Positions 291-10,428 of a DNA stretch of 32,000 nucleotides are shown piece by piece. This DNA is from Acaryochloris marina S15 (GTDB lineage: Bacteria > Cyanobacteriota > Cyanobacteriia > Thermosynechococcales > Thermosynechococcaceae). Location of the stretch: the NCBI RefSeq assembly GCF_018336915.1, contig NZ_CP064925.1, positions 90,001 to 122,000 on the forward strand, in the 5' to 3' direction. Position numbers and translations under genes: made by a program. Positions within the stretch are counted from its first letter, which is position 1. Each line of letters opens with the position of its first letter. The notes under the pieces were generated by a model, which had not been told where the DNA came from, searched no databases, and saw nothing but the letters and a program-made list of their open reading frames with translations.

Positions 291-1638
291 GTTGAAATTC
301 CTGAAATGCTGTATTAATAGTGACTTCAGAGCATTTCTTGATGAACATTGCCCAGCGCGAACAACAGATTATCCGCATCCAATCCCAAAGCTCCTATGCC
401 TCTATTAACGAAGCCCTGGAAGCAACCCTACGCCTGGAAGCAAGCCAAGTCACCCAGAAAATAATAGAGGCAGCACTAGACGAAGAAGTGCAAGCCTATC
501 TATCCCAACTTCAAGGGACTCGACCTCGGCGCTCAGGTTATTATCAACGGGTTCTAGATACGCAGTATGGCAGGATCCCTCAACTGTCTGTCCCTAAACT
601 ACGTAAAGGGAACGCAGACCGAGAGTGGCAGATTTTAGAACGTTACCAACGTGCCCTTGGCAGTCTCCTCGATTTTTGCCTCGGCCTGTATGTCATGGGT
701 TTATCGCTTCGGGACTTGCAAGAAGCTCTCTATGAGATTCTAGGAGCAGTCTTATCCGTTAATGCCATTAACCGAATTACGCTAAAAGCTCAGAAGCAAA
801 TGTTCCAAAGGCGTCAGACTCGTCTTGAGGAAACCCCTCCTATTCTGATTGTCGATGGTGTTTGGGCTAGTGTTCAGTGTTCCTCAGAAGACTTTTGGGA
901 AGACCAAGCTGGGCATATCCGGAAACTACGCCATGCAGAAGACCGAGTCATTCTAGTCGCTATGGCAGTGTGGCCCGATGGCACCCAAACGGTGCTTCAT
1001 TATGAAATGGCGACGCAAGAATCGGAGGCAGCTTGGTCACTATTCTTTGCGCATCTGTGGCAACGGGGATTGCAACCCTATTCGGTGAAGTTGATTGTGA
1101 GTGATGGTACGACTGGGTTGCCTAAGGTGATTCGTGCTCTGTTTCCCCTCGCACAACATCAACGCTGCATTACCCACAAGGTTCGAGCCATGCTGCGGCA
1201 TTTAGGCTATGGGCAATTGTCGTACCTGGATGCGCAAGGACAAGAGCTTTCACTTCCTGAAGCTAAGAAACAGCGGTATGCACAAATTCAACATGATGCC
1301 TACGCCATCTATAAAGCGCCCACCTGGGAAGGGGCAGTTATTTCATTTCTGGTGTTTGAGAAAAAGTGGACAGACATCGAACCTGACGCCGTCAGAACCT
1401 TTATCAACGATTGTGCCCTGACTTTGAACTTCTATGATTTTGATGCATCTCTTCACTCACTCATTCGAACCTCAAATGCACTCGAGCGGTTGTTCCGGGA
1501 ATTCCGAACCAAGGCCGATGAAATTGGTGCGTTCCCTAATGAAGAGAGCTGTTTAGCAATTCTCTTCCTCGTTTTTCGTAGGGATCATGCCAAGCATGAT
1601 CGGCTCAAAAACCGTGGCGAATAAATCGGGACACTAAC
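264..1638 (+). mobile_element. IS256-family insertion sequence, apparently intact (1375 bp)
   Basis: There is a 21-bp perfect terminal inverted repeat: 266-286 TAGTGTCCCGATTTATTCGCC is the reverse complement of 1616-1636. It is flanked by an 8-bp direct repeat and contains a single Mutator-type transposase ORF. Confidence 0.85.
320..1624 (+). CDS. IS256/Mutator-family transposase
   Basis: 434-aa ORF (GTG start) with family hallmarks: VDGVW, SDGTTGL, QRCITHKVRA, and TSNALERLFREFRTKADEIGAFPNEES. Confidence 0.9.
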   Translation: MTSEHFLMNIAQREQQIIRIQSQSSYASINEALEATLRLEASQVTQKIIEAALDEEVQAYLSQLQGTRPRRSGYYQRVLDTQYGRIPQLSVPKLRKGNADREWQILERYQRALGSLLDFCLGLYVMGLSLRDLQEALYEILGAVLSVNAINRITLKAQKQMFQRRQTRLEETPPILIVDGVWASVQCSSEDFWEDQAGHIRKLRHAEDRVILVAMAVWPDGTQTVLHYEMATQESEAAWSLFFAHLWQRGLQPYSVKLIVSDGTTGLPKVIRALFPLAQHQRCITHKVRAMLRHLGYGQLSYLDAQGQELSLPEAKKQRYAQIQHDAYAIYKAPTWEGAVISFLVFEKKWTDIEPDAVRTFINDCALTLNFYDFDASLHSLIRTSNALERLFREFRTKADEIGAFPNEESCLAILFLVFRRDHAKHDRLKNRGE

Positions 1639-1646
1639 GAGATTTT
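1639..1646. repeat. target-site duplication GAGATTTT (right copy)
   Basis: Identical to 256-263. Confidence 0.8.
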
Positions 1647-1662
1647 GGTGATCGGGATTAGC

Positions 1663-1702
1663 AAAAGGGAGAAGCTGTTGCGATAGCTGCTCCCTTTTGT
1701 TG
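1663..1702 (+). terminator. rho-independent terminator of the IS-interrupted small gene
   Basis: Stem 1667-1676 GGGAGAAGCT pairs with 1685-1694 AGCTGCTCCC (one mismatch) across an 8-nt loop, followed by TTTTGTTG. Confidence 0.6.
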
Positions 1703-1746
1703 CCTCTGATATTCTGTGATTAAGCTAGAGGAATGCCAGGGGCAGT

Positions 1747-2289
1747 ATGAACGAGCTTTCTCCCACTCAAGAATTAAAGGAAGACCTGTTACGTCCAGTG
1801 CCGATTCCAGAGACAGAACTGGAGCGGTATATCTCGTTCAAGCATGCGCTTAATCTTCGTTTCCCAGATGAGGACACGGGGGATTGGCATTTTCAGCCCT
1901 ACTTTTTTGAACAAACGGATGCCCTAACAACTCAAAAGAGCATCCCCCTTGCTGGAAAGGGCCAGCAGGTTGATACAACGCCTTCCCTAGGTCATCAGGG
2001 AGTGCGAGATATGTCTTCAATTTTGTTTCAGGAAGGATTATCCATTCCCTCAGATCAACCTGTATATGTCGCCAATCATTATCGGGCTATCGCAGACTTA
2101 GCGATGCTGGATCTCCAGAAATCGCGACCGCCAAGTATTGCAGACAATGCAGCAATTAACAGTTGGCTGGATAGCCAAGAGCAAGTTGATCACCTCAAAC
2201 GAGAGTACTTAGAACGCTTGGCAATCCAACTATCAGGTGAACCCCTCAGAATTTTTAAGCAATGGATTCAGACCGTGAAATTCGTATAA
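1747..2289 (+). CDS. hypothetical protein upstream of and overlapping the AbiEii-like fragment
   Basis: 180-aa ORF that overlaps the next ORF by 28 nt. I recognise no motif, so any antitoxin role rests on position alone. Confidence 0.4.
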   Translation: MNELSPTQELKEDLLRPVPIPETELERYISFKHALNLRFPDEDTGDWHFQPYFFEQTDALTTQKSIPLAGKGQQVDTTPSLGHQGVRDMSSILFQEGLSIPSDQPVYVANHYRAIADLAMLDLQKSRPPSIADNAAINSWLDSQEQVDHLKREYLERLAIQLSGEPLRIFKQWIQTVKFV

Positions 2290-2546
2290 ACCCTTCCCAG
2301 TCCATCCACTTGGACTTGATGCGGTCAGTCGCTCAACAAGTCGGTGATACGCCTTATGTCCTCAAGGGAGGTGCGGCACTCATCTTCACTCGTGCCCTGG
2401 ATCGCTATTCCACGGACTTAGATTTTGACTCTACAAAAAAGCTAAATCTCAAGGGTCGAATTGAGTCTGCCATTAGGAATGTGAATGGTATCGAATTGAA
2501 ATCACTAAAGTTGGTCAAAGATACGGATACTGTCCAGCGGCTATAG
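2262..2546 (+). pseudogene. AbiEii/AbiGii-type nucleotidyltransferase toxin, N-terminal fragment only
   Basis: YVLKGGAALIF...RYSTDLDFDS matches the LKGGtAL...R.S.DlDF signature of the AbiEii (DUF1814) N-terminus. The ORF stops after 94 aa, whereas family members are about 230-300 aa. Confidence 0.5.
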
Positions 2547-2652
2547 TCGTTAGAGGTGCCCGGATGAAAAGCCTGACCACTGAAAGCCTGGAGCTGGAGC
2601 AGGGGCCGCAAACCCCAAGCCCGGATCAAGGTCCAAGCCTATAATCTGCCGA

Positions 2653-5600
2653 TCACATCTCCAGTTCCTTATCCAGATTTACAGTTTGAGTAGGTTGAGA
2701 TTTATGCTGGAGCAGGAACAATCTGCGCTCAAACACTTTTGTGGAACGTCCTTTGTATAGCGCGTCCTGGTATGAGTGGGTAAAGTGAATCACTCCCTGG
2801 ATATACCGTTGTTTATCTTCAGGTGATTTCAGTTCTCTAGCGGCATCAGACTGCATCAGCACTCTGGTTCCATCCATTGCATCACCCTCACCTTGAGCGA
2901 TGAGATAGATGGCAATATCATTGTTGTGCTGTGGGTTCTCCCGACTTAATTTGTTTTTGATTTGGGTGTACTGCCCCCGGTAATGCATCTTGATTTCCCG
3001 GTCCATTGGATAGGCATTCTGGTCTGCCCGCTCAAAGGCGATGGGGCCATGATTGCCAATCAGGTCATCAACGCCTTTCCCCTGTTCAGGCTCCCACGGT
3101 ATTCTCCATGTCTTGCAGCCTCTTTCTTCAATGAGTTCAGCTTCTCTGACCATTTCACGCCGCACATTCCAGACCGTGGACTGCTCTGAATCCCAATCAT
3201 GGGCATACCTGAATTCTCTGCCTGGTGCAGCAAATACTTCTAGTTGAGGATGTAGCACCCTTCTTTCGAGTCGTTCGTCGTGCTGGTTCTTGGCCCGATA
3301 GCCAATGTTGACTCCCTGACCACCAATGACGACTCGACCTTGAGAGACTAATGCAGCATCTTTCTTATCCCCTTCAGTCCGGTAGATGGGAATTTCAGGG
3401 TGCTGGTAGACCGTGTACCAGAATCCCTTAGCTTTCTCCTCCTGTGTTTGGGTGACTCCATGCTTGGCAAAGATCTGCTTAGCGATGGGATCGGGAACGG
3501 GTTGGAATGCCATATCCCGGTCAAACAGTTTACGCTTGGCTCCCAGTGGGTTTTCATACTTGCGATATTTGGGAGGGGCATTGGGATTTTTTGTCCTAGC
3601 TCTGTGGGTTTTGTCTACATCGATACGGGGAGTATCAGGCTTGAAGGTTCCATACAGACTAAGCGTTGGCTCCTCATTGGGTCCTAGTCCTTCAAAGGTG
3701 AGTGGATCGACCCCAGCATCAGCCCACCAGCCCCCACCTTCAGCAAGTTCCTGATAACTCAACACTTCAGGATGAGACCGATCATTAATCAAGGCACGGA
3801 TCGGCTCGATGTGATACTGACTGCGAACCTTCTTGAAAGACCCATCCCTCCTGCGAGTGGCGATGTCTTCGATCTTGGCCCCCAGCAACCGATCAATCAC
3901 CTGATCATCAGCAATGGATTGGAGCCGAGCCTTAATCACATCGGGATGGGCGCAGCTAGACACCCATTCATCCCAATGCTTCTCATCAATGGTGTCAGGC
4001 CGCTCTACCCCGGTATAATCCGGTTTCCAGAACACCTGATCATCAATGGTCTTCGGCTTGGGAGTGACGCTTATGCCCTTGTCCGTCAACTGTTGAGCGA
4101 CTTCCTTAAGCTGTTCTGCGACTGGCCCATTTACCAGTGCATCGACTGAGCGCATCGACTTCACAGACTGGGCTAACTGCTGCATGGCTGGGAAGGTCTT
4201 CAGACTTCGCTGAAAGCGCACCACCAGATTATTGAGTTCACCAATGTGCTGAGCAATGGATTCATGTGCTCTCCACTCACTGACGGTATCGGCCAGCCCC
4301 TTGATTTTGGCAAAAGAATAAGTGGGGCGCTTGGCGTTAAACGCTTCAATCTGCTGGGTGATGGCCTGAAGTTGGGGCTGCACCTGAGTAAGAGATTGTC
4401 CCTGCTGGAGTTCGCTCACCACTTCGGCCAACTGATCCATGCCCTTAAACTGAATCTGCTGAGGTTCAGACAAGGTGTTGATTTGAGTGGTCAGTGCGGC
4501 CAACTGCTCAACCAAACCACTCTCAGCCAGAGCTTGTTCTTCATTGAGGTCATGCACATCCTGAGCTAGGTCACCCATATCTGGGAATTGGGGAATGGTC
4601 AGACTCTCAACTAAGTCCTGCACTTCGCCAATGGCAGCGGTAACCTCCACCTCGTTTTGCCAATCTTGGACGGCATCGACCAACTCAGCCATTGCGGGGA
4701 ATTTGACATCCAGAGATTGAGTCGCTTCCAAGCCAGCTTGTAATCGGATGATTGTCCGGTCTAGCCCTTCAGTACCTTGAGCTAGGACATCAACCATCTC
4801 AGTCACGGCATCAGCCAGCTCTTGACCAGATCGCCACTCTGCTACGGCATCAGCAATGCTCCTGATCCTCTGCTGGCTTAGAGTTTGTTCAATGTTCTGG
4901 TCAATGTGGTCAATAGATTGGGCGATATAAGTGAGGTTATGGCTGAGGTCTTGTTGGTCCCGTGCCTGAACAACAGTCTCAGCCAAGCCATCTAGGCCCA
5001 CAAAGGAATTAGGTTCTAAGTTCTGAGATAAGGTATCAACCCGTTGAGCAAGATCCAGTAATTGAGGCTCTAACCCAAGCTCTGCAAATTCCTGGCTTGC
5101 CTGCCATGCGATCACATCATCAGCGATACTCCTAAATTGCTGATGAGGGAGAGACTTCTCGATAGCCTGGTCAATGGCTTGGGTGATCTGAGTGAGGTTA
5201 TCTGCGAGGGCATCAGCAAACTGGTCTTGCACGACCCGATTTGCCAAACTATCCAAACCATTGAAGGAATTAGGTTTTAGACTTTGGCTGAGTGACTCTA
5301 TATCCTTAGCAAGGGTTAGCAGGTGATTATCCAACCCACTTGTTGCTAGCTCGTTCTCCTCAGACCACTGCATCACCCAATTTGCTAGGTCTGAGGAGGT
5401 TGACCCCCATTCTGTTGAGCGACTGTCTTGGGCTTGGGCTTGCCATTCTTGGACGCCTGATGCTTGACCCCCTGGATCTCCTCTGCGGCTTCCAATACCT
5501 TGTCGCTCATCGCGGCTTGGAGCATCGTTGAGTCTTCGATCTTCATCCCAAGATTGTCCATCGCCTTGGCGAGTTGCTTGATACTCTCGCTCATGTCCGA

Positions 5601-8475
5601 GGGCTTCTTGGCTGCCATTGCGTCCTTGAACTCCTGGATGAACAGGTTGAGAACGGCTTTGACCTCCATCGGGATAGTGTTGATCCGCTCCCTGACCTGG
5701 GACTTGAGTTCTCTGTTCTCGTCTAGGATGTGTTGGTTCTGAGCTTGGACTTCTTCGACTTGATTGGTCAGGATGGTGATCGCGTCCGTGAGTGGGGCTA
5801 ATCGGTCTCGAAGCTCGTCCACGATCTGCTGTTGTTGTTCGTTGATGTCCATAGGTTTCCTCAATTAGATCTAAAGCACTTTCTTGAGCGTTGGATTTTA
5901 CAACCCGTTTCTTCAGCTTTTCCAGGTTTTCGGTATAGATGGTCAGTTCATGTTCTTGGCGGGAAATATCGACTAGGAACGGCTCTCTGCTGGAGGTGCG
6001 GTCATTGGTGGTGATGACAATCGTCCGTTTCTTGCTGCCACTCTGGGAGCGGTAGGAAGTCCACACCCGGTCATACTCCAAGGCCAAGGGTTGAGTGAGG
6101 GGCACATCATGGGAGACTCCCTTATGGTCCCTGACCGTCATATTCAAACTATCCAGGGCGGTGACCGTGAGCTGCTGACCGTTAATCCAGTTGTTTTCCC
6201 GGATAGTTGTCGTCCACCGCAGCTTATCCCCGACTGCCACATCAAATTCTTGGGCACTGTAGACCTCCTTTTGCTTGTATTTAGCTGGATTGAATCGATA
6301 AAGCCGACCACCGAAGGAAGAGACTACCAGCTCATCCCCTTCGCATTTCTCCACCTTGTAAAGCTGTCCTCGCTTGATGGATGACGTTTTAGACGTTTGC
6401 AGTAGGCGAACGTAATCCCCTTTGCGATACCAATCCACCCGTCGTTTTTGCTCAATACTCAGGTTTCTGGATTTGAGCTGGACAATCTTGCTGGATTCCC
6501 CGAGTCGCCCAAGTTTCTTCTCCCCCCTGCGAATGGCCTTTTCAGCCGCGAGTCGTTCCTTGTTGGTCCCAGCAATAATCAGGGTTTGGTCTTGTTCGTT
6601 GGGAGAGAGGGCAAGGAACTGAGCTGCTGCGGCTTGGGTCATCTCAGTCTTATCGTCTGCCTCAATCACATACCCCTTGGCATTGAGGAGGTCCAGTGCT
6701 TTGAGTCCTTGACCTCTGGCGATGAGTTCAACGGCTTGCTTTTGGACATCAACCTTCTGCCTGACAATCTCCTCAATCCGGTGAGTGGTCGCTCCATTGT
6801 GCTGCATGAACTTGAAGGGATTGCCCGCTTCAATCGCGGAGTTCTGGCCCGCATCCCCTACGAAGATGACCTGTGCTTTGACTGCCTCTGCCTTTTCCAG
6901 AATCACCCGCATCTGTCTTCGGCTCATCATGCCCGCTTCATCAACCAGCCAGACTTGATTGGGGCTGTTATCAGCTTGATGCAGAACCAAATGCTCAACG
7001 GTGTTGGTGGCAATGCCTAACTCATCCTGGAGTTTCTTCGCTGCTGGGATAGTGGGACTAAAGCCCCGAATTGTTAGACCGGAGCCATTGAGTAAAGTCT
7101 TCAGTACTCCTAATGTTCGAGACTTGCCCACCCCTGGAAAGCCCTGCCAGATTTGGTAGCGGTCAGTACTAGTGAGGGTGTTGAGAACTGCCTTGGCCTG
7201 GTCTTCATTCAGTTCAACTGCAATCCCTAAGAGTGAGGGATTAGCAACCATTGGTTGAGCTTGATCTTGGCCTTCCATCCAGCGCTGATGGATCTGGGCT
7301 TCTTCTTCAACGGCAGTGACGGTGGTGAATCCCCGATCAACAGGGATTAGCTCTTTGCTTTGGCTAATGGCCTCATCCACCTGTTCCATCGCCATGCCCT
7401 GACGTTTGAGGGTCTTGAAGACATAGGCATAGATGTCATCCGTCTCAAAGATGGATGACCATTCAGCGTAATGACGGATGGCGCTTTCAACCTCATACCT
7501 GGCTCGGTCTGGGTCAGGCATTACGGCCAAAGGTTCAGCCAATACTGGATGACCCACTCCTTGAGAGTGAGCCTCATCCCGCCAATGGTCTTGGATGATT
7601 TCGAGCTTTTTACCCACGCCCCGCTTAGCCTTGCGAGTCGTCAACACTTTCAGCTTCTTATTCTCAGGAGTAACTTCTAGCCCTTCATCCCGAACCGCTT
7701 TGACGATGGCCCGATGACGCTTGCTGAAGACCTCGACATCGGAGCGGTTGTAACCCTCTAGCTCAAACCCATCCTTAGTTTCATAGATGCGATACCCCAG
7801 CCGTTGGACCTTCTCTGCTAACTTCTGACGGTAGAAGCTGCCTATCCACTTAGCTTTAGCCAGCTTTTCATGAGAGAGGGAGCGCCACTGACCATCTGGC
7901 CCCTGTGTCCCATTCATGAGCAGCATGTGGGTGTGAAGCTGCATGTCTCCATCACGGGAAGTATGGTGAGGCATCAGTGCCGCGATCATGTTGCCTGTAT
8001 TGACGACAGAGCGTACTCCATTTACTTGAATCCGAGTCTGGGCATACTCGCGCTCAAGTAACTCAAAGCTTTCTAGAACTGCCTCCATGTGGGCATCGAA
8101 TAAGCGATTGTCTCCTTCTAAGTGCAGTGCCATCGACACACTTTTAGGTGCAGACAAAGTAACGTCATGGGCCAGTCGTTCTTTGTCTTCCTCGTTGGGT
8201 TTCTTGCCCCGAATCCTTTGGACTGCACTACCAGCGACACCTTTTAAGGAGTCAGGCAAGAACCCTCGACTGAGCGCTTTGAAGTCCTCTCTTTTAACGT
8301 AGGTGCCTAACTTTTGAACAATCGCGTTGGAGCCGACCCAGACAGCAGTACTCATGCGGTCAATGTCAGAGACCGTCTCAGATTCACCGTAATAGCGCTC
8401 CACAGCATCTACGAGAGATTCATCTTCCTCGTAGTACTCGATCATGTCGCGTGTTATGGTCTGCATCGTCCGCAT
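2653..8475 (-). CDS. MOBF-family conjugative relaxase-helicase (TrwC/TraI-like) fused to a repeat region and a DUF3854/Toprim-like C-terminal domain
   Basis: N-terminus has paired Tyr motifs (EYYEED...ERYYGE), then WVGSN..KLG, LSAPKSVS and the His triad HHTSRDGDMQLHTH. The helicase has Walker A GFPGVGKS and Walker B WLVDEAGMM. The C-terminus has YRTEGDKKDAALVSQG..IGGQGV and GKGVDDL, which is Toprim-like. Confidence 0.85.
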   Translation of the reverse strand: MRTMQTITRDMIEYYEEDESLVDAVERYYGESETVSDIDRMSTAVWVGSNAIVQKLGTYVKREDFKALSRGFLPDSLKGVAGSAVQRIRGKKPNEEDKERLAHDVTLSAPKSVSMALHLEGDNRLFDAHMEAVLESFELLEREYAQTRIQVNGVRSVVNTGNMIAALMPHHTSRDGDMQLHTHMLLMNGTQGPDGQWRSLSHEKLAKAKWIGSFYRQKLAEKVQRLGYRIYETKDGFELEGYNRSDVEVFSKRHRAIVKAVRDEGLEVTPENKKLKVLTTRKAKRGVGKKLEIIQDHWRDEAHSQGVGHPVLAEPLAVMPDPDRARYEVESAIRHYAEWSSIFETDDIYAYVFKTLKRQGMAMEQVDEAISQSKELIPVDRGFTTVTAVEEEAQIHQRWMEGQDQAQPMVANPSLLGIAVELNEDQAKAVLNTLTSTDRYQIWQGFPGVGKSRTLGVLKTLLNGSGLTIRGFSPTIPAAKKLQDELGIATNTVEHLVLHQADNSPNQVWLVDEAGMMSRRQMRVILEKAEAVKAQVIFVGDAGQNSAIEAGNPFKFMQHNGATTHRIEEIVRQKVDVQKQAVELIARGQGLKALDLLNAKGYVIEADDKTEMTQAAAAQFLALSPNEQDQTLIIAGTNKERLAAEKAIRRGEKKLGRLGESSKIVQLKSRNLSIEQKRRVDWYRKGDYVRLLQTSKTSSIKRGQLYKVEKCEGDELVVSSFGGRLYRFNPAKYKQKEVYSAQEFDVAVGDKLRWTTTIRENNWINGQQLTVTALDSLNMTVRDHKGVSHDVPLTQPLALEYDRVWTSYRSQSGSKKRTIVITTNDRTSSREPFLVDISRQEHELTIYTENLEKLKKRVVKSNAQESALDLIEETYGHQRTTTADRGRASRPISPTHGRDHHPDQSSRRSPSSEPTHPRREQRTQVPGQGADQHYPDGGQSRSQPVHPGVQGRNGSQEALGHEREYQATRQGDGQSWDEDRRLNDAPSRDERQGIGSRRGDPGGQASGVQEWQAQAQDSRSTEWGSTSSDLANWVMQWSEENELATSGLDNHLLTLAKDIESLSQSLKPNSFNGLDSLANRVVQDQFADALADNLTQITQAIDQAIEKSLPHQQFRSIADDVIAWQASQEFAELGLEPQLLDLAQRVDTLSQNLEPNSFVGLDGLAETVVQARDQQDLSHNLTYIAQSIDHIDQNIEQTLSQQRIRSIADAVAEWRSGQELADAVTEMVDVLAQGTEGLDRTIIRLQAGLEATQSLDVKFPAMAELVDAVQDWQNEVEVTAAIGEVQDLVESLTIPQFPDMGDLAQDVHDLNEEQALAESGLVEQLAALTTQINTLSEPQQIQFKGMDQLAEVVSELQQGQSLTQVQPQLQAITQQIEAFNAKRPTYSFAKIKGLADTVSEWRAHESIAQHIGELNNLVVRFQRSLKTFPAMQQLAQSVKSMRSVDALVNGPVAEQLKEVAQQLTDKGISVTPKPKTIDDQVFWKPDYTGVERPDTIDEKHWDEWVSSCAHPDVIKARLQSIADDQVIDRLLGAKIEDIATRRRDGSFKKVRSQYHIEPIRALINDRSHPEVLSYQELAEGGGWWADAGVDPLTFEGLGPNEEPTLSLYGTFKPDTPRIDVDKTHRARTKNPNAPPKYRKYENPLGAKRKLFDRDMAFQPVPDPIAKQIFAKHGVTQTQEEKAKGFWYTVYQHPEIPIYRTEGDKKDAALVSQGRVVIGGQGVNIGYRAKNQHDERLERRVLHPQLEVFAAPGREFRYAHDWDSEQSTVWNVRREMVREAELIEERGCKTWRIPWEPEQGKGVDDLIGNHGPIAFERADQNAYPMDREIKMHYRGQYTQIKNKLSRENPQHNNDIAIYLIAQGEGDAMDGTRVLMQSDAARELKSPEDKQRYIQGVIHFTHSYQDALYKGRSTKVFERRLFLLQHKSQPTQTVNLDKELEM
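4090..5340 (-). repeat. degenerate tandem protein repeats inside the relaxase ORF (first two units are 87 aa / 261 nt)
   Basis: Unit 1 starts at 5340 (SGLDNHLLTLAKDIESLSQSLKPNSFNGLDSLANRVVQ...). Unit 2 starts at 5079 (LGLEPQLLDLAQRVDTLSQNLEPNSFVGLDGLAETVVQ...). Weaker copies carrying the F(P/K)(A/G)M..L(A)..V theme continue to about 4090. Confidence 0.7.
5385..5852 (-). CDS. nested +1-frame ORF inside the relaxase linker; 155-aa helical, coiled-coil-like protein (possible MobB-like accessory factor)
   Basis: The ATG at 5852 is preceded by GAGGAA and by in-frame TAG and TAA stops. The product has balanced, protein-like composition, while the relaxase frame over the same DNA is R/S/P/G/Q-rich low complexity. 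Confidence 0.5.
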   Translation of the reverse strand: MDINEQQQQIVDELRDRLAPLTDAITILTNQVEEVQAQNQHILDENRELKSQVRERINTIPMEVKAVLNLFIQEFKDAMAAKKPSDMSESIKQLAKAMDNLGMKIEDSTMLQAAMSDKVLEAAEEIQGVKHQASKNGKPKPKTVAQQNGGQPPQT

Positions 8476-8490
8476 GGGATGGCCTCTGGC

Positions 8491-8907
8491 TTAGCCTTCC
8501 AGATGCTTCAAGTAATCATCGACAGCGGCTTGATGTGCCTCATAAAGTTTTGGGTTTGCTTCGAGATGCTGTGCCATTGAGATTTTCTTGGATGCTTCAA
8601 CGGCAGCTATGAAGTCTACTTTTCTGACATAGGGACCGAGCTTCTTGACCAATGGGTTGGAGCCGACCCAGACAGCGGTAGTCATGGGGTCAATATCAGG
8701 CTCTACGCTCTGGATGTCATAGCCCAGTTCGCGACAAGCCTCTACCAGTTCGTGCTGATAAAGTCTCCTCCGATTACCAGGTTCAATCAGTTCTTTGCGG
8801 TAGAACCTCTTGAATTCCTCAGCCTCATCGACTGGATCATCAGCTTGGGAACGCATGAACCCTTGAGTGACTTGTTGCCAAAGTCTGGACAAGAAAGTTT
8901 TAAGCAT
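8491..8907 (-). CDS. degenerate paralogue of the relaxase N-terminus (138 aa)
   Basis: DIDPMTTAVWVGSNPLVKKLGPYVRKVDF and ISMAQHLEANPKLYEAHQAAV align to DIDRMSTAVWVGSNAIVQKLGTYVKREDF and VSMALHLEGDNRLFDAHMEAV of the relaxase. The DNA word TTGGAGCCGACCCAGACAGC is shared at 8327-8346 and 8657-8676. The YY motifs and the SAPKS segment are missing. Confidence 0.6.
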   Translation of the reverse strand: MLKTFLSRLWQQVTQGFMRSQADDPVDEAEEFKRFYRKELIEPGNRRRLYQHELVEACRELGYDIQSVEPDIDPMTTAVWVGSNPLVKKLGPYVRKVDFIAAVEASKKISMAQHLEANPKLYEAHQAAVDDYLKHLEG

Positions 8908-9238: not shown

Positions 9239-9260
9239 GACCCCTAAAAACGGCAATTTT

Positions 9261-9287
9261 GGGCGGGGGTATATTACCTTGTCTAAC
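9261..9287 (+). promoter_or_regulatory. conserved promoter/operator motif, copy a (GGGCGGGGGTATATTACCTTGTCTAAC)
   Basis: Member of a six-copy, same-orientation family. The TATATT hexamer lies about 30 nt upstream of the ATG at 9304. Confidence 0.55.
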
Positions 9288-9303
9288 TCAAGAGTTTTTC
9301 AAG

Positions 9304-10428
9304 ATGACTACAAAAATATTTTTGACGGTCGATGTCGGTGCAAGTTTGACCAAAGCCTTCTTGCAAATTGCAGCAGATGGCAAGCTTCCGATCGAGAAAT
9401 GCATCACCCAACCCTCTGCTGTTCTCAGAACAACTGAGAGCTTCTATGAGGAGATGGACCACGATAACTCTGCTCACAGTTCCCTCCTTTGCTATGGGGG
9501 GATGTACTGGCAGACGGGCCAGATTGCCGAATCCAATCTCAGGCAGACCAACACGGACCAGCACAAGCACCCGGAAGCGATTGCCAAGGTGCTGTCGATT
9601 GCGGGGTATGCCATTTCCAAGGCTGGCAACGGAGCTGAGATGTATTTGGACTTGCTGCTGCCGAAGAGTGAGGAGCCGAGCTTTACCCAGATGAAGCGAG
9701 ATTTGGCGAAGTACGTCAGCAAGTTTTGGTATGGGTCGAAGCAACTGACCTGTGCGCCGAAGTTTGTGAGGGTCTTACCTGAGAGTGCGGGGATTGTCTC
9801 GCATGTCCAGACCTATCCCTCGATCATTCTGATGTTTGGTCACAAGGACTTTACTCTGACGAAGATCAAGGATCAGCATAGTGGCTTGGCCTACATCCAG
9901 ACATGGGCAGGTCGAGGTTCGTTGATGATTCAGCGTCATATGAGCTGGACCCCCTCGAATGAGCTGACAGGTGCCAAGCTGGTGTTTTCACAAGGAACAG
10001 GTCAAAAAGGGCTTGAAAAGGCATTTGGGGATGAGGCTGGCCCTGTCGTGGCTTCCTTGCGCCAAGCCAGAGAACTGTACTGGGTGAATCTCCAGCAGCA
10101 ACTGAATAGTGACATTGATGTGGTGCAGGCCAAGCGCATCTATGTCGCGGGTGGTGGAGCGCCTGCCTGGTCCAAGCAACTCAAGGAATCCTTTAGCGGC
10201 AAATTAGACTTGCTCGGTTCAGTGATTCGCACCATTGGCCGAGAATTCCCAGAGTGGTCAAAGTCTCCGATGACCTACCGCCTGACGGATGCCTATCTGG
10301 TGTGGCGACAGAATGCGGATCGTCCTGAAACGCTGCAAACTCCGCCTACTCGCAGTGCCAAGACTCCTAAAACCACTAAGGCCATTAAGACAGCAAAGAG
10401 TGCAAAAGCGGAGGTGAGCAATGTCTGA
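9304..10428 (+). CDS. ParM/StbA-like actin-fold ATPase with a basic K/T/A-rich C-terminal tail
   Basis: The phosphate-1 motif FLTVDVGASLTK and the adenosine motif YVAGGGAPAW fit the actin/ParM fold. I prefer the ATG at 9304 because the upstream part of the tracked ORF is the regulatory motif. The tail reads TPPTRSAKTPKTTKAIKTAKSAKAEV. Confidence 0.6.
   Translation: MTTKIFLTVDVGASLTKAFLQIAADGKLPIEKCITQPSAVLRTTESFYEEMDHDNSAHSSLLCYGGMYWQTGQIAESNLRQTNTDQHKHPEAIAKVLSIAGYAISKAGNGAEMYLDLLLPKSEEPSFTQMKRDLAKYVSKFWYGSKQLTCAPKFVRVLPESAGIVSHVQTYPSIILMFGHKDFTLTKIKDQHSGLAYIQTWAGRGSLMIQRHMSWTPSNELTGAKLVFSQGTGQKGLEKAFGDEAGPVVASLRQARELYWVNLQQQLNSDIDVVQAKRIYVAGGGAPAWSKQLKESFSGKLDLLGSVIRTIGREFPEWSKSPMTYRLTDAYLVWRQNADRPETLQTPPTRSAKTPKTTKAIKTAKSAKAEVSNV

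Follow-up and report, generated by a model that had tools for sequence, protein, structure and literature searches.

A conserved gene probably nested in the +1 frame of the interdomain linker of MobF-family relaxase genes on Acaryochloris plasmids

Overprinted genes nested on the same strand inside another gene are known, for example Rz1 in Rz of phage lambda, B in A of phiX174 and comS in srfAB of Bacillus subtilis. For long same-strand overlaps in bacteria, support from more than one genome is rare, and such genes are systematically left out by annotation pipelines. The closest described system to the one considered here is that of RSF1010/R1162, where mobB is contained in mobA/repB and translated from another reading frame (PMC2200642). 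We checked this case on L031, an IncQ1 plasmid with an identical MobA, on which mobA starts at 501 and mobB occupies 1249..1662, an offset of 748 (1 mod 3, i.e. the +1 frame). The precedent to which an initial annotation of our sequence had appealed, with mobB in the +1 frame of mobA between its relaxase and primase parts, is thus real. Here we analyse a 32,000-nucleotide stretch of Acaryochloris marina S15 (contig NZ_CP064925.1, positions 90,001 to 122,000; hereafter the window), in which a 155-residue open reading frame (ORF), lying in the +1 frame between domains of a plasmid MobF relaxase gene, very probably represents a genuine protein-coding gene. We found no description of this nested gene, or of any nested out-of-frame gene in MOBF relaxases, in the open-access full-text literature.

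On comparative grounds the nested gene is conserved and unannotated, and the locus is a non-homologous variant of the mobA/mobB-type arrangement in cyanobacterial MOBF relaxases. The overlap of about 470 nt is conserved from Acaryochloris to Nostoc, and free-standing homologues of the small gene provide a built-in control. In the host ORF the TrwC domain is followed by the AAA_30 helicase, the overprinted linker, coiled-coil repeats and DUF3854, in that order; NCBIfam assigns the protein to MobF (NF041492, 3.3e-73), and both the TrwC relaxase domain and the SF1B helicase that characterise the TrwC-type MobF family are present. The parts of the locus are as follows:

2653..8475, minus strand: MobF-family relaxase gene, 1940 amino acids (ORF call and Pfam/NCBIfam domains)
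7567..8448, minus strand: TrwC relaxase domain, residues 10-303 (PF08751, Pfam 1.3e-62)
6655..7215, minus strand: AAA_30 / TraI-type helicase core, residues 421-607 (PF13604, Pfam 1.1e-51)
5385..5852, minus strand: nested gene, 155 amino acids, +1 frame of the relaxase gene (ATG at 5852, TAG stop at 5387..5385)
5383..5853, minus strand: relaxase-frame read of the overlap, residues ~875-1031, an R/G/S/Q/D/P-rich polar tether (open, sequence unconserved)
4036..5382, minus strand: in-frame coiled-coil repeat region, residues ~1032-1480 (translation and BLASTP against L021/L022)
3043..3423, minus strand: DUF3854 domain, residues 1685-1811 (Pfam 7.9e-42)

The nested ORF begins at an offset of 2623 within the relaxase gene (2623 mod 3 = 1, hence the +1 frame) and sits between AAA_30 and DUF3854. 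Both frames are open for about 470 nt of the minus strand, as the initial annotation had proposed, with coordinates that match ours. Three short signals flank the ORF:

5865..5873, minus strand: nested-frame stops closing the +1 frame upstream of the start (TAG at 5873..5871, TAA at 5867..5865)
5857..5862, minus strand: Shine-Dalgarno-like GAGGAA, with a 6-nt spacer (4 nt past the full hexamer) to the nested ATG
5371..5373, minus strand: ATG in the relaxase frame, 11 nt past the nested stop (kept in close relatives only)

The GAGGAA and the ATG at 5852 are as first described; of the two stops, which had been placed three to five codons upstream of the ATG, the TAA is indeed five codons away, the TAG seven. 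The downstream ATG at 5373 was also correctly positioned and had been put forward as a possible start of a separate C-terminal product, after the fashion of RepB'. Among the copies examined for it, it is present in the window, L001, L002 and L003 and absent in L007, L004 and L014; confined as it is to close relatives, it is not supported as a conserved RepB'-like internal start.

Codon choice in the nested ORF is strongly skewed, and the hand counts made initially all proved correct. The Asp codons are GAC in 10 cases and GAT in none (77 GAT to 41 GAC in the relaxase flanks), and all 11 Ile codons are ATC, with no ATT or ATA. Fifteen codons end in T, among them none of the 52 that precede AA, AG or GA. 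Overall T occupies 9.6% of nested third positions, compared to 23–28% in the relaxase codons on either side. The 6 Asp and 7 Ile codons that stand in ‘allowed’ contexts also end in C.

To place the ORF among its relatives we gathered close ones by tblastn and blastn against plasmids; a GTDB scan added the Acaryochloris metagenome-assembled genome (MAG) L007, and an exhaustive HMMER search of 1.8 billion representative proteins returned 13 relatives, a profile search 20. A metagenome scan with alignment A1 gave no confirmed relative, and alignments A2 and A3 contained no segment sufficiently conserved for search patterns. In 13 further relaxase genes, a +1 ORF of 125–167 residues with an ATG lies inside an open relaxase frame, giving 14 copies with that of the window, and identity to the window nested protein drops as low as 23–37%. 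The 13 are distributed as follows:

Acaryochloris plasmids: L001, L009, L002, L003, L004
Acaryochloris MAG: L007, 56% identity
Metagenome or Sequence Read Archive (SRA) contigs: L011, L013, L014, L016, L017, 25-44% identical to the window protein
Nostoc plasmids: L026, L030

In each of the five Acaryochloris plasmids the segment is +1 relative to the annotated mobF coding sequence (CDS) and the nested frame is unannotated; in the complete plasmid records examined (as deposited in GenBank, or RefSeq with the Prokaryotic Genome Annotation Pipeline, PGAP), mobF is the sole annotation across the overlap. In the five metagenome or SRA contigs, the frame one base upstream is open across the small ORF and continues into helicase-end and coiled-coil sequence. 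The two Nostoc plasmids hold a distantly related +1 ORF in long relaxases, for which 13.6–13.7 relaxase-frame stops are expected and none is seen. The nested protein of L003 (pREB3) has a 14-residue Q/N-rich expansion (QQQNVNNQQQIINN) near its N-terminus, to which a T/A/D/H/Q repeat corresponds in the relaxase frame, showing that a change in length can be tolerated in both frames at once.

That the relaxase frame should be open across the nested gene is far from expected. When the nested protein is held fixed and its synonymous codons are redrawn from the codon usage of the relaxase flanks (3000 resamples), the window overlap should contain a mean of 12.4 relaxase-frame stops; it contains none, and not one of the 3000 resamples was stop-free. 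Permuting the synonymous codons of the nested ORF itself gave P = 0.005. The same holds for the whole set, with no relaxase-frame stop in 14 of 14 embedded copies against 7.3–13.7 expected by resampling, while the third frame has 6–19. T at nested third positions ranges from 6.5 to 14% in these copies, compared to 23–29% in the flanks. Neither frame carries a stop in any of the 14, in line with the dual coding originally suggested.

The free-standing homologues lack this property. They form one subfamily of the homologues, are called as genes in L018, L019, L020, L032 and L035, and comprise three distinct sequences (P0012, P0016 and P0017), as L018, L019 and L020 encode the identical protein P0012 on overlapping contigs. 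Their positions are:

L018, 1379..1765: stand-alone homologue
L032, 7001..7387: stand-alone homologue
L035, 7001..7450: stand-alone homologue

In all three loci the homologue is found a short way past, and in convergent orientation to, the 3′ end of a TrwC+AAA_30 relaxase gene without DUF3854. In the frame corresponding to the open relaxase frame of embedded copies, the stand-alone ones have 3–9 stops (5 in the truncated copy of L036), their third positions are 16–18% T, and T is equally frequent in ‘forbidden’ and ‘allowed’ contexts. Avoidance of stops is therefore a property of being embedded and not of the protein family.

These counts bear most directly on the reading in which the locus contains three ordinary genes, the small gene and two separate relaxase-derived proteins, with the overlap open by coincidence. 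Some gene callers do split the locus in this way, for example in L014, and in the window there is the ATG after the nested stop from which a third product might begin. However, nothing but translation through the overlap would select for zero stops in every embedded copy where 7–14 are expected and stand-alone copies carry 3–9, and the downstream ATG is not conserved. We consider this reading highly improbable.

The start signals of the nested ORF are well kept from copy to copy. The ATG is kept in all 14 copies, with GGAG, GAGG or AGGA 5–10 nt upstream in 12 and GGA in one more, and the stand-alone homologues share the position of the starting Met with the nested copies; no Shine-Dalgarno-like motif is found at the start in L018, the one stand-alone copy examined for it. 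This matters for a second alternative, to which we give an equally small chance, namely that programmed +1 ribosomal frameshifting joins the helical segment to the relaxase-helicase in a fusion protein, in place of or besides internal initiation. The frames are indeed +1 apart, the nested frame is closed only five codons upstream of the ATG, and one degraded copy (P0006) shows just such a fusion, by mutation. Yet there is no conserved slippery motif, the sequence at the junction varies from copy to copy across the 14, with only the ATG and the Shine-Dalgarno-like motif conserved, the stand-alone proteins begin at the same Met, and no stable RNA structure is found around the nested start (z = +0.87).

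The clearest distinction between the two frames comes from substitution rates. In the overlap the ratio of nonsynonymous to synonymous rates (dN/dS) is 0.1–0.3 in the nested frame, and apparently 1.4–3.8 in the relaxase frame; for the window against L002 the values are 0.22 and 2.9. A comparison of L001 with L002 gave:

L001 vs L002, overlap, nested frame: dS 0.45, dN/dS 0.15
L001 vs L002, overlap, relaxase frame: dS 0.04, dN/dS 3.7
L001 vs L002, relaxase flank upstream: dS 0.51, dN/dS 0.12
L001 vs L002, relaxase flank downstream: dS 0.57, dN/dS 0.32

Relaxase-frame dS is 0.04–0.08 in the overlap compared to about 0.5 in the flanks, a roughly tenfold suppression of the kind that the initial annotation had suggested looking for. 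As nested-frame dS is about that of the flanks, the relaxase frame adds almost no constraint beyond the avoidance of stops. Protein comparisons agree: BLASTP of the window against L004 (pREB6) gives E = 5e-16 for the nested frame and E = 5.6 for the relaxase frame, and pairwise comparison of 11 divergent copies finds similarity between the nested-frame peptides in 48 of 55 pairs, but between the relaxase-frame peptides in 7 of 55. Composition by codon position is that of an ordinary coding sequence in the nested frame, and abnormal at the second position in the relaxase frame (G 34%, T 6%), a bias that makes the tether rich in R, G, S, Q and D. Together these results show that selection preserves both frames, each in its own manner: in the nested frame the amino-acid sequence is under ordinary purifying selection, while over about 470 nt the relaxase frame is constrained essentially just to stay free of stops, encoding a polar, non-conserved tether.

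Several observations weigh against a nested gene, or against parts of the account given here. In the reverse of the resampling test, with the relaxase-frame peptide fixed, the nested frame is open in 22% of resamples for the window, and by chance in 6–51% overall; as the test is weak in this direction, it is the comparative data, and not openness alone, that carry the case. T is also depleted at nested third positions where it would be harmless to the relaxase frame (15 of 102, or 15%, compared to about 25% in the flanks), and stop avoidance explains the depletion only partly. The remainder might possibly reflect selection to keep codons that begin with T (Phe, Tyr, Cys, Trp, Leu) out of the tether or, alternatively, the keeping of a distance from stop codons. 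As to function, no Pfam or NCBIfam family reaches its cut-off with the nested protein, a sequence search of the PDB finds generic coiled coils only, and a Foldseek search of the predicted structure against the PDB gives no match. The Nostoc copies match the family hidden Markov model (HMM) weakly (E ~ 2.5e-7, against a small target set), the relaxase of MAG L007 is frameshifted elsewhere in the gene, and L012, L015 and P0002 are frame-scrambled, showing that not every copy is intact. Finally, we infer initiation at 5852, and the two products, from the sequence only.

The first of these points favours the possibility that translation is confined to the relaxase frame and the +1 ORF arises as a side effect of compositional bias in a low-complexity linker; the absence of a match to any known family would fit it too. 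Against it, the +1 peptide is conserved and the linker peptide is not, with dN/dS low in the former frame and above 1 in the latter, and with a conserved ATG and Shine-Dalgarno-like motif and homologues that exist as genes in their own right. We rate this possibility a shade below the two preceding ones.

The frame-scrambled copies are P0002 (Acaryochloris sp. CCMEE 5410, 91 residues), L012 (6001..6792) and L015 (16..588). Their called proteins switch between nested and relaxase frames, which marks them as decayed relaxase genes or error-rich assemblies, and they were set aside from the comparison as such. An assembly or sequencing artefact, or a recent double frameshift, with the helical segment truly in the relaxase frame, can be dismissed: a single frame would result if there were one more T ahead of the ATG and the G5 run near 5410 differed in length, and the helical nested peptide does resemble the downstream in-frame coiled-coil region, but the +1 arrangement with its bounding nested-frame stops recurs in 13 other sequences from independent assemblies and different genera, which excludes the two compensating indel errors against which the initial annotation had cautioned, a recent frameshift could not have produced the avoidance of about 12 expected stops, and the segment is in frame solely in the scrambled, degraded copies (P0002, P0006/L012 and P0008/L015).

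Taking the nested gene to be real, its product is predicted by AlphaFold2 (AF2), from an alignment of 10 sequences, to consist of two long helices (2–80 and 84–136) and a disordered polar tail, with a mean predicted local distance difference test (pLDDT) score of 77. To make it, ribosomes would initiate internally on the relaxase mRNA, at the nested gene's own GAGGAA-N4-ATG, while those already in the relaxase frame would read through to give the full 1940-residue protein. One sigma-70-like site (5924..5895) upstream of the nested start is at the level found in shuffled sequence as regards an internal promoter (1 found, 0.7 expected). Read in the relaxase frame, the overlap would give a polar tether, free of sequence constraint, that links the helicase domain to the coiled-coil repeats. 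The polarity of this tether is largely an automatic result of reading a gene with A or G in its first positions one base early, in that the second base of each relaxase codon would be the first base of a nested codon, mostly A or G, giving R, G, S, Q, D, E, H and N. Members of the nested protein's family occur solely within or next to MobF relaxase genes, in two gene arrangements, and this linkage is the basis for proposing that the nested protein is probably a relaxase accessory factor; the two-helix coiled-coil protein may act with the relaxase in the relaxosome or in transfer. An ATG-to-ACG change of the nested start (5852..5850) leaves the relaxase residue as it is (TAT to TAC) and would disable the nested gene alone, and tryptic peptides unique to the +1 frame include LAPLTDAITILTNQVEEVQAQNQHILDENR and AVLNLFIQEFK.

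Clues to the origin of the arrangement come from short paralogous relaxases of 1317–1499 residues (L021-L025 and L027-L029), which occur in Acaryochloris, Nostoc, Crocosphaera, Picosynechococcus and Tolypothrix and have no nested ORF of 100 residues or more. In BLASTP comparisons of the window relaxase with L021 and L022, residues 872–1477/1482 are unmatched, an insertion of about 605 residues that starts exactly at the nested start and comprises the overlap and the in-frame coiled-coil repeats. In Nostoc L030 the equivalent module comes after DUF3854 and not before it. We infer that the small gene and the repeats are one module that was joined to relaxases at different points, with the small gene read through in the -1 register. 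On this account the nested frame would be the older, and the relaxase would have begun to read through a pre-existing small gene on acquiring the module of small gene and coiled-coil repeats. The family HMM does not match the in-frame coiled-coil repeats of the relaxase (E ~ 3), making it unlikely that the nested gene is a frame-shifted duplicate of them.

A second, unrelated family of nested ORFs, of about 240–270 residues, was seen in the +1 frame of MobF relaxases without DUF3854. Its members combine a coiled coil with a C-terminal membrane helix, an architecture like that of MobB, and three copies are 58–83% identical. The loci are:

L018, 2551..3273, minus strand: ORF of the second nested family, in relaxase ORF 1790..5014 (minus strand)
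L032, 7411..12291, minus strand: relaxase gene with an ORF of the second family
L035, 7471..12594, minus strand: relaxase gene with an ORF of the second family

The host relaxase frame is open where 10 stops are expected, T at third positions is 6.6% compared to 17.8% in the flanks, and GGAGAA stands 4 nt before the ATG.

Tentatively, and with somewhat less than even confidence, we propose that the direction of overprinting is reversed at these loci, the relaxase having swallowed a small accessory gene, and that a gene inside the linker is a recurrent feature of conjugative relaxases. If so, the relaxase would read the swallowed gene shifted by one base and use it as a disordered link to its newly acquired coiled-coil module, and the supply of the accessory protein would be coupled to translation of the relaxase mRNA. 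The recurrent design would then have three cases: DUF3854 MobF relaxases, with the module before or after DUF3854, the second +1 family in MobF relaxases without DUF3854, and mobB in MOBQ.

The surroundings of the relaxase gene can be compared with plasmids of Acaryochloris sp. ‘Moss Beach’, where pMB01 is 92% identical to the window DNA over 79% of 25 kb. The window is a recombination mosaic relative to the Moss Beach plasmids L001 and L009: the 480 nt upstream of the nested start (~5850..6350) are near-identical, with dS of 0.03–0.05, while dS is 0.31–0.33 in the nested gene (5385..5850) and 0.52–0.57 in the repeats further downstream. This jump places a recombination breakpoint at or near the nested start. 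Neighbouring genes are:

8491..8907, minus strand: 138-residue ORF just upstream of the relaxase gene, a paralogue of the relaxase N-terminus (DPMTTAVWVGSNPLVKKLGPYV vs DRMSTAVWVGSNAIVQKLGTYV; weak TrwC match, 5.5e-4)
9259..10428, plus strand: 389-residue ORF at the position of the divergent upstream gene
320..1624, plus strand: transposase at the left end of the window, 98.8% identical to copies on other Moss Beach plasmids

L007 has a counterpart of the 138-residue ORF at 1428..1853. In the Acaryochloris loci the divergent upstream gene is annotated just as a hypothetical protein; the related Nostoc/Picosynechococcus loci L025, L026, L028 and L030 have a ParM/StbA-like gene divergent from the relaxase.

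Compared to known systems, the host protein shares with TrwC of R388 and TraI of F the TrwC relaxase domain and the AAA_30/TraI helicase core, and differs from them in the addition of DUF3854, long coiled-coil repeats and the overprinted linker. One apparent ‘domain’ of this relaxase is the unconstrained alternative-frame read of another gene, and that gene adds an unannotated protein family to cyanobacterial conjugation systems. With the classical overprints it has in common a complete ORF in an alternative sense frame, with one frame constrained and the other compositionally odd. It is unlike them in that it is the frame of the host gene that is unconstrained, and the small nested gene that is conserved and free-standing elsewhere, which points to a long gene overprinting a short one, the reverse of the usual description.

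The likeness to RSF1010/R1162 is one of arrangement. Both nested genes encode a protein of about 15 kDa (137 residues for MobB, 155 here) on the same strand and in the +1 frame of a relaxase gene, both are placed between domains, with the relaxase part on one side and a primase or primase-like part on the other, and in both MobA and the window relaxase the host frame is of R/G/P/A-rich low complexity over the overlap. The proteins themselves are not homologous, with an hhalign probability of 0.3% and no NCBIfam match for the nested proteins, and the host families differ, being MOBQ MobA in IncQ and a MOBF TrwC-type protein with an SF1B helicase in the window. MobB (137 residues, helical) has a C-terminal hydrophobic segment WHWKLWLTVMLASMMPTVVLLIASLLLLDL, whereas the window protein ends in polar residues KNGKPKPKTVAQQNGGQPPQT that are predicted to be disordered; a membership in the MobB family, which had been suggested as worth searching for, fails both on sequence and on the lack of a C-terminal membrane helix. 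By our own reading of the MobA sequence the RepB' start of RSF1010 abuts the mobB stop (the annotated RepB CDS of L031 starts later, at 1761), unlike the window, where the downstream ATG is not conserved. It is possible that mobA/mobB in IncQ plasmids is an instance of convergence instead of a singular case.

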